64,000 nucleotides of DNA from a virus (lineage: Duplodnaviria > Caudoviricetes), in the IMG/VR virus record IMGVR_UViG_3300029288_000066, positions 128,001-192,000 of that record, one strand, 5' to 3'. Shown here piece by piece: positions 10,398 through 49,212 of this stretch. The position numbers and the translations under genes were made by a program. Position 1 is the first letter of the stretch. Each line of letters starts with the position of its first letter. The notes under the pieces were generated by a model that saw only the letters and a program-made list of their open reading frames with translations, did not search any database and had not been told where the DNA came from.

Positions 10398-11267
10398 TTA
10401 TTTAAAAATTTTTTTTAATCTTATTAATTCTTTTATAACTTCTTCAGATTCTTTAGTTTTATGTTTGTTTTCAAATAATTCTATTTTTTTTAATAATTTT
10501 TTCAAACTTATTTGCGACTTTACACCCTTAGATTGATTTTTTATGTGTGGCACTAATCTACAATTCGCTGGATGTCTTATTATTATAGGATTTATTCCAA
10601 TTAAAAACCCATCTTTGACTGAAAAAACATGGTCTCTACTAACTCCTTTTAAATTATTCTTCTTATTTGTTGGACTATACCATCCGATTTCTTTAATAAG
10701 TTTTATATTAAATTCTTCTGGAAACATATTTAATGAAAATTTAAATTCACATTCTGCTCTGTAAAATTTATAATATTTTACCTTACATGATTCGCAAATT
10801 GTCTTAAACCCAAAAACTTCACCTCCTTTGCAAATTTTACAATATCTCATTTTTTTCTCCACGGGTTTCTTTTTATTTATTGCTTTTTTTATTTTTCTAC
10901 AATCCTCGCAAATTGCATTATTTAGAGAAGCTCTTTTGTTTATCAGAAGTTCTTTTTCACACTTCTTACAATAGGCCTTTTTTGTTTCTGAATAATTTAT
11001 TTTTCTCAGCTTATTGTTAAATGATGCTGAACAGGATTTAGAACAAAATATTTTATTTTCACTTTTCAAACTTTCAAAAATACTACCACAATTTTTACAA
11101 TTATTATGAACTTTACTTTCTTTTATTAAAGAAATTTTTAATCTGTGGAATTTTAACTGTACCGATTTTTTAGTTCTACCAATAGTTTTAGCTATTTCAT
11201 TACATGAAATATTGGATTTTGCCAACTCAACAATTTTATCTATTTCTTTTGTATCCCATTTTTTCAT
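10398..11267 (-). CDS. Zinc-finger HNH-type homing endonuclease inside tRNA operon
   Basis: Multiple CxxC/FCSKSC; RDH...HPANC...N. Confidence 0.7.
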   Translation of the reverse strand: MKKWDTKEIDKIVELAKSNISCNEIAKTIGRTKKSVQLKFHRLKISLIKESKVHNNCKNCGSIFESLKSENKIFCSKSCSASFNNKLRKINYSETKKAYCKKCEKELLINKRASLNNAICEDCRKIKKAINKKKPVEKKMRYCKICKGGEVFGFKTICESCKVKYYKFYRAECEFKFSLNMFPEEFNIKLIKEIGWYSPTNKKNNLKGVSRDHVFSVKDGFLIGINPIIIRHPANCRLVPHIKNQSKGVKSQISLKKLLKKIELFENKHKTKESEEVIKELIRLKKIFK

Positions 11268-11765: not shown

Positions 11766-11806
11766 AAAAAGAAAAAGGGAGCTAGTTTTTCAACTGCTCC
11801 CTTTTT
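11766..11806 (-). terminator. Attenuator terminator of Leu/Cys tRNA operon
   Basis: AAAAAGGGAGC..GCTCCCTTTTTCTTTTT hairpin; 5' arm complementary to CAATTGCTCCC in leader. Confidence 0.85.
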
Positions 11807-11826
11807 AAGTTTGGTTTATCTCGCAT

Positions 11827-11907
11827 TTACGCAAAATCATACCACGTCAACTTGCTTTGGGAGCAATTGGCTAGTAAGAGGCATAAACACAAAGATATAG
11901 TTTTCAT
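11827..11907 (-). CDS. Leu/Cys attenuation leader peptide MKTISLCLCLLLANCSQSKLTWYDFA
   Basis: 26 aa ORF between promoter and terminator; LCLCLLL run matches downstream tRNAs. Confidence 0.85.
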   Translation of the reverse strand: MKTISLCLCLLLANCSQSKLTWYDFA

Positions 11908-11940: not shown

Positions 11941-11992
11941 TTACTTTCTACGCAAAGATACAAAAAAAGTTACATTAAATGCAAGTTTTTTT
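11941..11992 (-). promoter_or_regulatory. Composite promoter of tRNA operon (TTGC...TATCTTTG plus GTAAC-N16-CGTA)
   Basis: Near-identical copies at ~27560-27610 and ~49835-49885. Confidence 0.75.
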
Positions 11993-11995
11993 CAT

Positions 11996-12607
11996 TTATT
12001 TTTTAAATAGCTGATTTACAATCTCTTCTTTTATTATATTTTTAATGATTTTTCTAGCCTCTTCAGTATTTCCATTTTTTTCTACACTTATAATCTCTAC
12101 ATTTTCTGGATTATAAACTATACAGTGATAAACTTTATCAACATCATTGAACTCGAACCCTTTTTTATATAATAACATAGCATCATAGCCCAACTTGCTC
12201 ATTGCACGCATAAACGCCTGGGGTGCTCCGTTATATTGTTCTACCCTTAAAGAGTGCCACACCTCATCCTCTGTATCACTATATTTTATTGCTTCATTTA
12301 TAGCCATTAACTTATCTGTTTCTATATCAGAACTCCAATTATTCGCATAATCTTCATCACTTATCATATCAAGAAACTTCTTCAAATCTCTTCTGTTTGC
12401 TTTAGAAGCGGACTTCATATTTGTTATTACTTTTCTTGGAGCTAAATTCACAGTATATGTAAGTTTTCCCCACATTGCAGCATTTTCTTTAGAATTTGTA
12501 AAATATATTCCAGGACCTTCAGCGTCAGGGACTCCAATTTTCCCTGCAAACTCATCTGAGAACTTCTCTATTTTAGAATTTGAACCGTGATAAAAGACTC
12601 CATTCAT
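11996..12607 (-). CDS. ADP-ribosyltransferase-fold protein
   Basis: FYHGS...GPGIYFT...GYDA; C-terminal EARKIIKNIIKEEI. Confidence 0.6.
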   Translation of the reverse strand: MNGVFYHGSNSKIEKFSDEFAGKIGVPDAEGPGIYFTNSKENAAMWGKLTYTVNLAPRKVITNMKSASKANRRDLKKFLDMISDEDYANNWSSDIETDKLMAINEAIKYSDTEDEVWHSLRVEQYNGAPQAFMRAMSKLGYDAMLLYKKGFEFNDVDKVYHCIVYNPENVEIISVEKNGNTEEARKIIKNIIKEEIVNQLFKK

Positions 12608-23024: not shown

Positions 23025-23990
23025 TTATAATTGTTTTCCTTTTTCGTATTGCTCCAATTCTTTTTTCCCAAGCATTATGTGATAATATCCTTCTGATAAT
23101 ACAGCTTTTTTCTTTGCTTCTAATTTATCTCTATCACGTTTTTGAAACCATTCTCCCTTCATTTCTATAACTAAATTTCTCTCTGGTAAATAAAAGTCTG
23201 TAACATGAATACTCTTTTCTCCTTCAAATTCATATTCTATTCTTAACGTTTCGTAGAAATACATTTCTTTTCTTTCATCCAAAACATCCATCATTCTTAG
23301 TTCATAAGAACTTCTGTAATAAACCTCCTTCCCATACCAAGTCGTGTGATATCCAGTTTGATATTTAGTATTTACATTTGGAATTGCTCTACCTTCAACA
23401 AACGCCAGTCTTAAAGACTTAGATGTTGTTCTTAAATTAATACCGTTCTTTTTAAAGAAAAAATGTGTTGTATTATACATTATCCCATATTCATTTCTTA
23501 TTTGAATCAGTGCTTTTTTATTTGTAAAATACTCTTTTGAAAGGAGTATTAAAGCATTTTGATTTGACACCTGTAAGTTTTTTTGTAAAACTCCCAATTT
23601 GTTAAACAGATTTTTGTATTGTATGAAAGAACTACATAAATTACAATATTTTTTTTTGTTTTCATTAGAAATTTCCACCCCACAGCTTAAACATATTTTT
23701 TTATCTCCTTTTTTTTCACACAAAGGTCTCGCAGATTTTCTACGATTTCTTTCTTCATCAGAAATATTACAATTATATCTTCCATTGTTTTTACCAGAAG
23801 TTTTTAATATTCTTTCAGTAGACTGTTTTCTTCCTCTTAATTTTTCAGACGCTCTTTCATAGGATTCTTCAGTTCTAAATTTTGATGAGTATGTTCTAGC
23901 GCACTCTCTTGAACAGAATTCTCCTGTGGAATACTTACTGTATTTTATAGCTTCTTTTTTATTACAACTTTTACATTTCATAACAAACAA
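23025..23990 (-). CDS. PD-(D/E)xK (TnsA-like) homing-type endonuclease inside tRNA operon
   Basis: YRSSYE...TDFYL...IEMKG. Confidence 0.7.
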   Translation of the reverse strand: MFVMKCKSCNKKEAIKYSKYSTGEFCSRECARTYSSKFRTEESYERASEKLRGRKQSTERILKTSGKNNGRYNCNISDEERNRRKSARPLCEKKGDKKICLSCGVEISNENKKKYCNLCSSFIQYKNLFNKLGVLQKNLQVSNQNALILLSKEYFTNKKALIQIRNEYGIMYNTTHFFFKKNGINLRTTSKSLRLAFVEGRAIPNVNTKYQTGYHTTWYGKEVYYRSSYELRMMDVLDERKEMYFYETLRIEYEFEGEKSIHVTDFYLPERNLVIEMKGEWFQKRDRDKLEAKKKAVLSEGYYHIMLGKKELEQYEKGKQL

Positions 23991-26189: not shown

Positions 26190-27035
26190 TTATTTTTTAT
26201 AATCTTTTAGCCATTTTCTAATTGCATTGTCAGAAACACCATATTTTTTGCCAACCGCACAATAATTTGTTTTTTTAATTTCTTGCATCAACTGTTCATA
26301 AGACGGCCTTTCAACCCTTCTTCTACTTTTTTTATAACAATCTATACATTCTTTTGCTTTTACATCCTTCTCTTTCCCACATTTGCAAACTCTTGTTTTT
26401 TCACTTTTCCTTTTAATGTTTCTAAAACAATATGTGTTTAACGTAGAATCACAATTTGGACATATGATTCTTAGATTTTTTAATCTATTATCCATATGAT
26501 TTCCATTAATATGGTCAAGAATTAAAATTAATTTATTTCCATTCCAATTTACATCCTGTCCACACAACTCACAACATTCTTTTTTTAAACCTTCATCATA
26601 CAATCTTTTTTTAAAATTAGAAGGTAAGCTTTTTCCAACTACAAAATAATATTCAATTGGGTTCTTTTTGCAACCAGTAATTACACCTTGTTCTTTTAAT
26701 CGCTTATACAGCTCTTTTTTTCCAGTAAAATGTGAAATGTCTACATTATATCGAGCAATATAGTTTTTTATTGTTGTAAAACTTGCAGATGCTGGATTAA
26801 TATTAAGATTTCTTAAAGCATCAGAATAAGAATATGCATTTTTAACAGCTTCTAGTATTTCTTTTTCTGAATATTTCCAAATTCCATACTTTGCAACTTT
26901 TAAACCAAGACGCTTTGCTTTATGAGCTACGGAATGTTTACTCTTGCCTAACTTTCGAGAACAATATATAGCACCATGCTCTTCATAATTGTTCTTAAGA
27001 AATAAAATTTCATTTTCTACCCATTTATATTTCAT
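26190..27035 (-). CDS. HNH homing endonuclease with C-terminal HTH
   Basis: LDHINGNHMDNRLKNLRIICPNC; GKKYGVSDNAIRKW. Confidence 0.85.
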   Translation of the reverse strand: MKYKWVENEILFLKNNYEEHGAIYCSRKLGKSKHSVAHKAKRLGLKVAKYGIWKYSEKEILEAVKNAYSYSDALRNLNINPASASFTTIKNYIARYNVDISHFTGKKELYKRLKEQGVITGCKKNPIEYYFVVGKSLPSNFKKRLYDEGLKKECCELCGQDVNWNGNKLILILDHINGNHMDNRLKNLRIICPNCDSTLNTYCFRNIKRKSEKTRVCKCGKEKDVKAKECIDCYKKSRRRVERPSYEQLMQEIKKTNYCAVGKKYGVSDNAIRKWLKDYKK

Positions 27036-40324: not shown

Positions 40325-41082
40325 ACCTTGAGTTTACAGGCTTTAGTGAGCCAACTTTCGGAGGATTATTGTTTCCCCGCCTTATCCACATGCCTTGCGA
40401 CACGTACCGACTCAATCTCGACTGCTATGGGCAATCACTCCTATCGTCACAGACTACTCTACTGCTACTTTAACCACAACAAGGGCGCCCCCCTGCAATA
40501 GCCTTTCACAATAATCCGTTGAACTTTGACATCCAACGTCCCCAATTCATCTTGCGATGTCAGGGTCTGAGAGACCTGTCGTCCATAACGCCAGCGGAAC
40601 TTTTTCTTTGCTTCTATTGTTTTTAGAGAATAGAGCGGTTTTTACCCCGCACCAAAGTATGTGTTTAATTAAGGATGTGCCGCTGGAACAGCTTCGCCAC
40701 TTTTGGCGACGAAATACTATACACCTTCTGCGCCCTTTTGCATCAGTACGCTTTCATCTCCGAATCCTTCCTCCATCGCTGGAAGCGAGAATCCCAAAAA
40801 CAAATGGAACACGCTCTATAGTCTGCTAAACGTTGAACATTATTCCTCGGTTTTTCCTGTTACCCCTTTCGGAGCTCAATCGCCTTAACACAATTTAGAC
40901 GATATTCCACTCAGCAGTTGCCCTTGCAGAACGTACTAACCTATTGTATGCTCGACTTCCTTGTGAAAGCGGCGAGTTATAAACCCCACCTTTAATCCTG
41001 GTCACCCAGTTTATTTTGCCTGCCCCTTTCGGAACAGACCTTGACAACCCGTAGGCCACCAGTGACAGCACACTGCCACAAA
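40325..41082 (-). ncRNA. Large structured ncRNA, GOLLD-like
   Basis: ~760 nt GC-elevated segment with no credible ORF, between TATCTTTG promoter/boxA and terminator 40290-40316. Confidence 0.55.
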
Positions 41083-41199
41083 TATTTTCAATATTTTAAA
41101 GAACTTTAAATCTTGGTTACTCACCTATAATGAGCAAAGATATATAATCTAAAAACAAAAAGCAACTTTTTTCTTGTTTTTTTTTATTTTTTTTTAAAA

Positions 41200-41282
41200 A
41201 GACGTAAACAGGCCGCTCAACCACCTACCCTTGCTTTCTTCCGAACCTGGGGGAGTTCAGTAGGAGCTGGCCTATTACGCTT
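41200..41282 (-). ncRNA. ffs: SRP (4.5S) RNA
   Basis: Helix-8 signature CAGGTTCGGAAGAAAGCA in long hairpin. Confidence 0.8.
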
Positions 41283-41567
41283 TTTAAGTTACATAGATAC
41301 AGCTGAACCATTTTTCAGAGTCAATTTAAATGCGAAGGGCTTCCACTCTTGCGAGTCATACACAGCCTCACTTTCCTCACATACTGCATCAGGCGACTGA
41401 ACCTGACCTTTTTTAATAACTTAAATTTTCAATATCTTAAAGAACTTTTGCCAATGTAAATATACAAAAAAAATTCCATTTACATAGGCTCATACGAAAA
41501 AAAATAAAAAAAGTTACGAGAATCAAATAATTTTTTCTATATTTATAAAAAAATTAGGTTCTCTATA

Positions 41568-48351: not shown

Positions 48352-49212
48352 TTAATTTAATTTCTTTTCGTAATATTTAATCCATTTTCTTACTGCATTA
48401 TCAGAAACTCCATATTTTCTTCCGACTGCACTATAATTAGATTTTTTTAATTCTTCAACAAGTTCTATATAAGAAGGTCTCTGTGTTTTTCTTTGCCTAA
48501 TTTCATCACACGATTTACATCTTTTCATACCTTTACCTATTTCATTTCCACATGCACAATAATTTTTATTTTTTTCTTTAATTTCTTTTATTTTATCAAA
48601 ATATTGCTTTCCTATATTCTTTCCTCCATTAGTATTAAATGTAGCCGCACAATTTGGACAAACTATTCTTAAATTTTCCAATCTATTATCATTATGATGC
48701 CCATTTTTATGGTCAAGAATCAAACTAATTTTTTCCCCATTCCAAACTTCTCCTTGTCCACATTTCTCGCATATTTTTTGTTTAAGTTCTTCTTTATATA
48801 ATCTTTCTTTTAAATTTGTCGTATGATTATATGTTGAATTTTCAACTAATATGTCGGACAAATCAAATTTTCCAGAAACAAATCTATTACCTGAAATGCC
48901 AAAATTAAAATGTGAAATGTCAATGTTGTATTTCTCTATATATTTTTTAATAGTATTTCTGTTACCACAATGAGTTGTAATTCCCAATCTCCTAGCTACA
49001 TCAGTATAGCTTTTAGACTCACCCACAACTTTTTTAAATTTTATTTCATTGTATTTTTCATTCCTACATTCAAGATTAAGAGCAAAATGTTGTGCTTTAC
49101 CTCTAATAGATGTTTTTGTCCTTTTTAATTCATTTGCACAAAATTCACATCCGTAGATTGGATAATTCTTTTTCAAGAATTCCACGTCTTTTTCTGTCCA
49201 TTCTTTTTTCAT
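48352..49212 (-). CDS. HNH homing endonuclease (paralog of 26190..27035)
   Basis: LDHKNGHHNDNRLENLRIVCPNC; GRKYGVSDNAVRKW. Confidence 0.85.
   Translation of the reverse strand: MKKEWTEKDVEFLKKNYPIYGCEFCANELKRTKTSIRGKAQHFALNLECRNEKYNEIKFKKVVGESKSYTDVARRLGITTHCGNRNTIKKYIEKYNIDISHFNFGISGNRFVSGKFDLSDILVENSTYNHTTNLKERLYKEELKQKICEKCGQGEVWNGEKISLILDHKNGHHNDNRLENLRIVCPNCAATFNTNGGKNIGKQYFDKIKEIKEKNKNYCACGNEIGKGMKRCKSCDEIRQRKTQRPSYIELVEELKKSNYSAVGRKYGVSDNAVRKWIKYYEKKLN

Follow-up and report, generated by a model that had tools for sequence, protein, structure and literature searches.

A probable leader-peptide attenuator ahead of the Leu/Cys tRNA genes of a phage, one of five codon-matched modules in its genome

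The window, as we call the whole 64,000-nt stretch of DNA analyzed here, is part of a virus record of 228,886 bp. It is AT-rich, with 33% GC, and ARAGORN called 35 tRNA genes in it, to which a few weaker tRNA-like matches to Rfam are added; all of these lie on the minus strand. Comparison of the genome with GenBank phages by blastn returned similarity limited to short tRNA-level matches, to Lak megaphages and crAss-like phages. The locus described here consists of a promoter-like box, a short leader ORF, and an intrinsic terminator, followed by five tRNA-Leu genes and one tRNA-Cys gene. All features of this Leu/Cys module lie on the minus strand, and positions throughout are those of the window (Table 1).

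Table 1. Features of the Leu/Cys module and its sister modules, in window coordinates unless stated otherwise.
Feature	Position	Strand	Description
Predicted promoter, Bacteroidota sigma-A type	11985-11953	minus	TTG (11984-11982), 21-nt spacer, TATCTTTG (11960-11953)
Predicted leader 5' UTR	11946-11908	minus	A-rich, without Shine-Dalgarno sequence; transcription start predicted; conserved element ACTATTTAA, found in all modules
Leader ORF	11907-11827	minus	ATG to TAA, 26 codons plus TAA; 5' of the tRNA genes on the same strand
Putative regulatory run	11892-11872	minus	codons 6-12 (LCLCLLL), TTG TGT TTA TGC CTC TTA CTA
Candidate antiterminator strand A	11869-11859	minus	codons 13-17; complementary to the terminator 5' arm
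Leader-hairpin 3' arm	11856-11816	minus	includes strand B (11856-11848), which pairs with A; MFE fold and RNAalifold
Intrinsic terminator	11806-11766	minus	A-tract; 5' arm 11801-11791; loop; 3' arm 11787-11777; U-tract 11776-11766
Conserved box GTTCTTTAAAAT	11760-11749	minus	directly 3' of the terminator; candidate second promoter or processing site
Putative regulated unit (ARAGORN and Rfam)	11731-9941	minus	tRNA-like element (11731-11637), Leu(taa), Cys(gca), Leu(tag), HNH-like ORF (11267-10398), Leu(caa), Leu(gag), Leu(cag)
Module M0	outside the window		Gln/Arg(CGY)/Phe/Val leader, run of 12 codons
Module M1	see rows above	minus	the Leu/Cys module of the window, run of 7 codons
Module M2	27603-27376	minus	29-codon leader 27521-27432 with a 13-codon Ile/His/Asn/Thr/Lys run; terminator 27408-27386
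Module M3	49876-49594	minus	leader 49772 or 49733 to 49662, rich in Gly/Tyr/Pro/Ala/Asp/Met; terminator 49629-49605
Module M4	genome C1:194375-194005 (about 66375 in window coordinates, outside the window)		Ser/Trp/Arg(AGR) leader

Codons 6-12 of the leader ORF are Leu and Cys codons throughout, and the codon sequence given for this run in the initial annotation was confirmed. With readable codons defined from the six tRNAs of the Leu/Cys cluster, it is the sole run of at least seven cluster-readable codons among the 457,768 codon positions in the six frames of the genome. The tRNA genes that the same annotation had placed downstream, tRNA-Leu with anticodons CAA, TAA, GAG, TAG, and CAG and tRNA-Cys with GCA, were all called by ARAGORN and span 11590 to 9941. 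The predicted start context has A at -3, at -11 to -13, and at -15, and the ORF lies 119 nt 5' of the first RNA gene that follows. The terminator hairpin starts 20 nt past the ORF stop (-19.6 kcal/mol, z = -4.0 against shuffles). No further TAnnTTTG motif occurs on the minus strand from 11897 to 11082, and two terminator-like sites (9884-9858 and 9630-9606) lie 3' of the tRNA unit.

Two neighbors of the module were also noted. Right after the Leu/Cys operon, at 9775-9606 (minus), lies an sRNA-like unit made of a promoter-like box, about 150 nt, and a strong terminator of 11 pairs, 6 of them G-C. It has no convincing ORF and no Rfam match, and the unit, its terminator included, is also found in a 372-kb relative (L017). 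Just 5' of the leader promoter, the gene at 11996-12607 (minus) matches the ART-PolyVal ADP-ribosyltransferase family PF18760 at 32.6 bits, barely over threshold. There is no terminator between this gene and the promoter, and searches with the ART-like protein as bait found no relatives.

A scan for a plain sigma-70 promoter gave weak matches only, and this candidate was rejected. The consensus of the Bacteroidetes primary sigma factor (sigma-ABfr) comprises TAnnTTTG at -7 and a TTTG-like motif near -33, and the start context in these bacteria is A-rich and lacks a Shine-Dalgarno sequence (PMC7366714). The box ahead of the leader has the corresponding elements, TTG and TATCTTTG separated by 21 nt, at 11984-11953. 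Because the bare TAnnTTTG motif occurs in the window at chance frequency (47 and 48 matches against about 44 expected), the promoter call leans on a repeated and conserved 27-nt box (11985-11959), of which identical copies start at 11985, 27603, and 49876 with 0 expected. Two more copies lie outside the window, the fourth exact and the fifth looser, and TAnnTTTG is kept in all modules and relatives. Given the agreement with the Bacteroidetes sigma consensus and the A-rich start without a Shine-Dalgarno sequence, we infer that the host belongs to the Bacteroidota and that its RNA polymerase transcribes the modules. The 372-kb relative also carries the promoter without any leader, ahead of a protein gene, an sRNA-like unit, and a suppressor tRNA(cta), the last of which lacks both leader and terminator. 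Its leaderless use at the suppressor tRNA and the protein gene indicates that the leader is an add-on specific to sense-codon tRNA clusters.

The genome holds five paralogous modules, each consisting of a Bacteroidota-type promoter, a leader ORF, a terminator (-17 to -28 kcal/mol), the box GTTCTTTAAAAT, and a tRNA cluster. M2 precedes Asn, His, Thr, Lys, Ile, and Met tRNAs, M3 precedes Asp, Gly, Ala, Tyr, Met, and Pro tRNAs, and the promoter boxes of both are identical to that of M1. For M3, the longer of the two possible ORFs is backed by contig L007, where it has an ATG start. In M4 of this genome the promoter box is looser, and an additional ORF of 50 codons separates promoter and leader. 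In a matrix of leaders against clusters, the longest matching runs were 12, 7, 13, 6, and 6 codons for the leader's own cluster and at most 3 for any other, and the M0 and M1 runs are the longest of their kind genome-wide. The five clusters jointly cover 19 amino acids; ARAGORN called no tRNA-Glu in the virus record.

Several tRNA clusters are interrupted by ORFs with endonuclease-family matches (10398-11267, 23025-23990, 26190-27035, and 48352-49212, minus). Three of these match HNH endonucleases, two of them PHROG 10822 at 1e-44 and the ORF at 10398-11267 weakly, at 3.5e-4, and the ORF at 23025-23990 matches other endonuclease PHROGs. From these matches, the interrupting ORFs are probably homing endonucleases lodged inside what would be attenuator-controlled operons.

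The window has five exact copies of the 12-nt box GTTCTTTAAAAT (11760-11749, 26006-25995, 27369-27358, 41104-41093, and 49589-49578) against about 0.06 expected; every copy is on the minus strand, and the box is kept in relatives. Three copies directly follow module terminators and the others precede RNA genes. A variant, GTTCTTTGAAAT (11336, 24054, and 27092), is found after tRNA clusters and about 60 nt before HNH-like ORFs. Judged by its placement, the box could be a phage-specific promoter or a processing site. A further box, GTGGCAAT-N9-TACTTCG, has eight occurrences (about 1 expected), each followed by a tRNA-like element; sites of such elements on the minus strand include 11731-11600, 27343-27200, 25977-25884, 47270-47200, 47974-47900, and 45320-45250. 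The element at 27343-27200 appears by eye to be circularly permuted, its order being anticodon arm, T arm, acceptor 3' strand, A-rich spacer, and finally a perfectly complementary acceptor 5' strand with the D arm. The copy after the M1 terminator has a long variable arm and the anticodon AAA, and ARAGORN called its counterpart in contig L013 as Phe(aaa). The 5' box and 3' trailer of these elements are complementary, again by eye. Between the tRNA operons, also on the minus strand, lie a full-length GOLLD RNA (40325-40729, 185.9 bits) and a small SRP RNA (41196-41283, 47.2 bits), and a permuted tmRNA was called in the genome at 84078-84424.

The initial annotation had further claimed an 11-bp pairing between a leader segment and an arm of the terminator. 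This pairing was recovered between 11869-11859 and the 5' arm at 11801-11791, with one G-U among the 11 bp and a duplex energy of -16.7 kcal/mol (RNAduplex) that was equalled by 0.2-1% of dinucleotide shuffles of the leader (p 0.002-0.01). For the M1 leader, the 3' arm gave a corresponding value of -5.8 and the reversed 5' arm one of -7.5. The antiterminator and terminator pairings of M1 are mutually exclusive, and equivalent leader segments exist in the M0-M3 types. In copies of M0, M1, M2, and M3, the significant complement to the 5' arm always lies 1-4 codons past the run. Averaged over 17 modules, leaders scored -13.3 against the 5' arm, -8.7 against the 3' arm, and -9.1 against the reversed arm; the preference for the 5' arm is significant relative to both the 3' arm (p = 0.007) and the reversed arm (p = 0.0007, Wilcoxon). 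No significant antiterminator was found in the M4 (Ser/Trp/Arg) leaders, neither in the genome copy nor in its orthologues.

One M0-type relative, L011, which automatic module detection missed on account of its short T-tract, differs from the other M0 copies in both the leader segment and the arm, yet 8 bp remain. The pairing persists there though part of the arm no longer pairs inside its own terminator. A fixed-register pair count over the M0 alignment gave no compensatory substitution; the change in L011 is a paired loss or shift, visible by re-folding only.

A promoter-box scan identified eight metagenome contigs that carry true modules, with all five types among them. An exact scan of viral contigs with the first promoter pattern gave 0 matches, as did a scan of genome contigs with a leader segment. 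The 372-kb relative, an IMG/VR contig rated complete, was found with the Leu/Cys leader run and carries all five module types. In every relative, each leader type lies directly ahead of its matching tRNA set.

The M1 type is represented by three sequences (the window, L013, and L014) with 89% identity overall. Over the stretch comprising the run and strands A and B, 58 of 61 positions are identical, and the run itself is unchanged at every base in L013 and L014, synonymous sites included. The length and frame of the ORF are kept as well, the indels falling in the UTR and spacer. Variation is found in the UTR, the 3' end of the ORF, the spacer, and the terminator loop. L013 and L014 retain the terminator stem, in which both bases of two pairs are changed; the three M1 sequences are close, and their structures show almost no covariation. 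Among M2-type leaders, the residues of the run differ between phages yet stay within Ile/His/Asn/Thr/Lys. A separate observation concerns the Gln/Arg/Phe/Val-type leader of L008 (60-215, minus), which has an in-frame TAG right after the run; if the TAG were read through, the ORF would have its usual length and include the antiterminator strand. A suppressor tRNA(cta) is carried by the phage (the loci noted for these observations are L008:60-215, genome C1:196604-196678, and L022).

The MFE fold of the window leader and the RNAalifold consensus of the three M1 leaders agree on an OFF state. Leader codons 3-9 pair with the stop-codon region (run codons 7-9 with about 11832-11823), strand A pairs with strand B just downstream, and the terminator forms too. 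The 3' arm of the leader hairpin is predicted from this fold to act as an anti-antiterminator. The calculated energies are -21.9 kcal/mol for the whole leader hairpin, -4.8 kcal/mol for the apical A:B helix alone, -13.9 kcal/mol for the terminator core, and about -20 kcal/mol for the duplex of A with the 5' arm. The UCCC of strand A sits in the apical loop of the OFF-state hairpin, where it could serve as a toehold for the GGGA of the arm.

Ribosome positions were modeled at equilibrium by imposing the footprint as unpaired, with 3' edges at +9, +12, and +15. For the window copy, the terminator probability was 0.96 without a ribosome. Placing the A site on codons 3 to 9 or 10 lowered it to 0.06-0.3 across the three footprint sizes, and on codons 11-21 it was at least 0.9. 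Stalls on codons 11-12 fall in the last group because strand A begins only 3 nt past the last run codon; a ribosome on the last two or three codons of the run, (CTC) TTA CTA, covers strand A and would favor termination. A ribosome at the leader stop codon gave an intermediate terminator probability and would also favor the antiterminator. When the RNA was truncated ahead of the 3' arm, the leader paired with the 5' arm except where a ribosome covered strand A. Without a ribosome, the terminator probability was 0.93-0.99 in all three M1 copies.

We also simulated co-transcriptional folding stepwise, taking the MFE structure at each length and accepting only transitions below a set barrier, a heuristic that is sensitive to the barrier chosen. 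With barriers of 8-9 kcal/mol, the terminator formed without a ribosome, with unimpeded translation releasing at the stop, and with a stall on codon 12. Stalls led to the antiterminator on codons 6, 8, and 10, those tested at a barrier of 8, and on codons 3-10 at a barrier of 9. At 7 kcal/mol the outcome was blurred, and translation keeping pace with transcription gave the antiterminator. In L013 and L014, which have stronger terminators, few codons flip the structure, and neither the equilibrium nor the kinetic model gave a robust stall-dependent switch. Equilibrium folding of 17 modules with the ribosome mask gave inconsistent switches outside the window M1 and some M2 and M3 copies, and the simulation of six other modules was noisy. 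A competitive antiterminator, on which the initial annotation had made its reading depend, was thus obtained for the window copy with stalls up to about codon 10 and was lost on codons 11-12. The structural case in these models for read-through upon stalling is good for the window copy and unproven for its relatives.

We consider it likely that the leader is a ribosome-mediated (leader-peptide) transcription attenuator that gates the phage tRNA operon. The features that define leader-peptide attenuators at the sequence level, an ORF, codon enrichment, a terminator, an antiterminator, and an anti-antiterminator, were all found, and the proposal of a Leu/Cys-sensing attenuator made in the initial annotation is well supported by paralogy, conservation, and a specific, well-placed antiterminator complementarity. 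In the mechanism we propose, host RNA polymerase would start at the Bacteroidota-type promoter and transcribe the 26-codon ORF, which ribosomes would translate from its presumed ATG start. By default the leader hairpin would form (run codons with the stop region, A with B), the terminator would fold, and transcription would stop before the tRNA genes. If usable tRNA-Leu or tRNA-Cys became scarce, slow decoding of the run would park the ribosome on about codons 3-10. The parked ribosome would melt the base of the leader hairpin and free strand A to pair with the terminator 5' arm; with the terminator blocked, polymerase would read into the Leu/Cys tRNA genes. The new phage tRNAs would relieve the stall and turn the unit off again, a negative feedback. 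The four sister modules would do likewise for other codon sets, and each tRNA set would probably be transcribed only when ribosomes read its codons slowly.

The presumed direction of this switch could be reversed. Read-through might require efficient translation of the leader, or be a constant leak, and a stall would then raise termination; in the former case tRNA synthesis would be coupled to active translation by feed-forward and not to tRNA shortage. We judge this unlikely. The geometry of the last run codons keeps it alive, since strand A is covered by stalls on codons 11-12, as does the pairing of the 5' arm with the leader in RNA cut before the 3' arm unless a ribosome sits on A. The antiterminator favored by a ribosome on the stop codon and the orthologues without a robust stall-induced switch also fit a reversed polarity. 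Feed-forward, however, gives no reason for leaders to be written in the codons of their own cluster, and a positive loop would not stabilize tRNA supply, whereas the conserved hairpin that locks A in untranslated RNA and the ON window at codons 3-10 follow the classical logic.

Another account, which also seems improbable to us, is that leader and terminator form an independent short unit, producing a small RNA or peptide, and that transcription of the tRNAs begins at the box that follows the terminator. In that case the codon match would have another use, for example as a translated decoy or an uncoupled reporter of tRNA function. The position of GTTCTTTAAAAT after each module terminator and ahead of leaderless non-coding RNA genes is what would be expected of a promoter or processing signal, which could bypass the gate, and terminators as strong as -17 to -28 kcal/mol would suit such a unit. 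No known promoter consensus fits the box, however, and an independent unit leaves unexplained both the conserved complementarity to the 5' arm just past each run and the invariable position of the leaders immediately 5' of the matching cluster. It is very improbable that the ORF encodes a tiny secreted lipoprotein, or is a remnant, with its Leu/Cys richness a by-product. By eye it does resemble a signal peptide, with Lys at position 2, a hydrophobic Leu/Cys core, and Ala-Asn-Cys with the Cys at 15, but cleavage would leave only 11 residues, the run is conserved at synonymous positions, and the four paralogous leaders, with a shared promoter and layout, differ entirely in composition, are non-hydrophobic, and each match their own tRNAs. 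On these three grounds the lipoprotein was set aside. The codon match, together with complementarity that is consistently placed and arm-specific, argues against both the independent unit and the lipoprotein.

If the leader is an attenuator, it could sense amino acids or individual tRNAs. The use of four different Leu codons had been taken in the initial annotation as a sign that isoacceptors are sensed. The four codons are indeed present in the run, but sampling them is no special feature, because 46% of Leu/Cys leaders resampled from the synonymous codon usage of the genome reach 5 or more of the 6 anticodon species (P=0.46). CTG, the cognate of tRNA-Leu(cag), is absent from the leader, so that 4 of the 5 Leu anticodons are sampled directly, though tRNA-Leu(cag) is in the operon. 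Over the five leaders combined, codons for 33 of 35 anticodon species are present (P=0.03). Where tRNA-Arg(acg) follows, CGC or CGT are the only Arg codons of the leader, and where tRNA-Arg(tct/cct) follows, only AGA or AGG are used; this holds in all copies counted (four M0-type and three M4-type, with L011 outside the count), and CGN makes up 18% of the Arg codons in the genome. Since the division of CGY and AGR codons between leaders matches that of the tRNA-Arg genes, the sensors appear to follow tRNAs and not amino acids. Isoacceptor sensing is therefore not supported by the Leu/Cys leader alone, and at the level of the family the evidence points, more weakly, to sensing of tRNAs rather than amino acids. 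We suggest tentatively, at somewhat less than an even chance, that the modules form a tRNA-demand network in which five attenuators divide the code (19 amino acids, with Arg split) among five operons and read out tRNA species. The network might be triggered, for example, by a host tRNA pool unfit for phage codon usage or by host tRNAs being degraded or cut by anticodon-nuclease defenses.

The tRNA genes of phages are usually seen as constitutive supplements to codon usage or as replacements for host tRNAs lost in infection. If the proposed mechanism is correct, a sensor written in the codons of its own tRNAs would provide a direct closed feedback loop on decoding capacity and carry leader-peptide attenuation beyond amino-acid metabolism into the translation apparatus itself. 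The way these genomes sort their tRNA genes by amino acid would gain a regulatory explanation, and it would become possible to test when large phages need their tRNAs and for what reason. As the modules are short and self-contained, they could report the supply of specific tRNAs in Bacteroidota. A full-text search of the literature found no paper on leader-peptide control of tRNA genes, those of phages included, and in a survey of huge phages "attenuat" and "leader" are both absent from the text (PMC7162821). Searches against the Rfam leader families (Leu_leader, His_leader, Thr_leader, Trp_leader, and Phe_leader) and the T-box gave no match at gathering thresholds, and permissive E-values gave chance-level matches only, of which Phe_leader scored best (16.5 bits, E = 3.6, where the threshold is 55).

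The phage modules share with the trpL, hisL, leuL, thrL, ilvL, and pheL leaders of amino-acid operons in E. coli and Salmonella (pheL is reviewed in PMC3082878) a short codon-enriched ORF and an intrinsic terminator. Several amino acids are sampled in one leader by thrL and ilvL, as in the phage leaders. The classical systems likewise use an antiterminator that engages the terminator 5' arm, and their leader hairpin keeps the antiterminator from forming while no ribosome is stalled. In the classical leaders the 3' arm of this hairpin serves as antiterminator strand, whereas in the phage the 5' arm does, and they control biosynthetic enzymes, whereas the phage modules would control tRNA genes, whose output acts directly on the quantity sensed. 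The phage modules further differ in being phage-borne, in having a Bacteroidota-type promoter, and in occurring as five copies that divide 19 amino acids, and they are not related to the classical leaders in sequence or through Rfam. The pheM leader attenuates the pheST operon of E. coli, which encodes an aminoacyl-tRNA synthetase. It resembles the phage modules as a case of leader-peptide attenuation of a component of the translation apparatus, but it is chromosomal and serves a synthetase and a single amino acid, whereas the phage modules are viral, modular, and placed ahead of tRNA genes. T-box riboswitches (RF00230) also choose between terminator and antiterminator in a leader according to the state of a particular tRNA, which they read via its anticodon. 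Their contact with uncharged tRNA is direct and needs no translation, relying on a single specifier codon and the conserved T-box sequence; the phage leader has no T-box match, and its signal would be a translated run of 7-13 codons.
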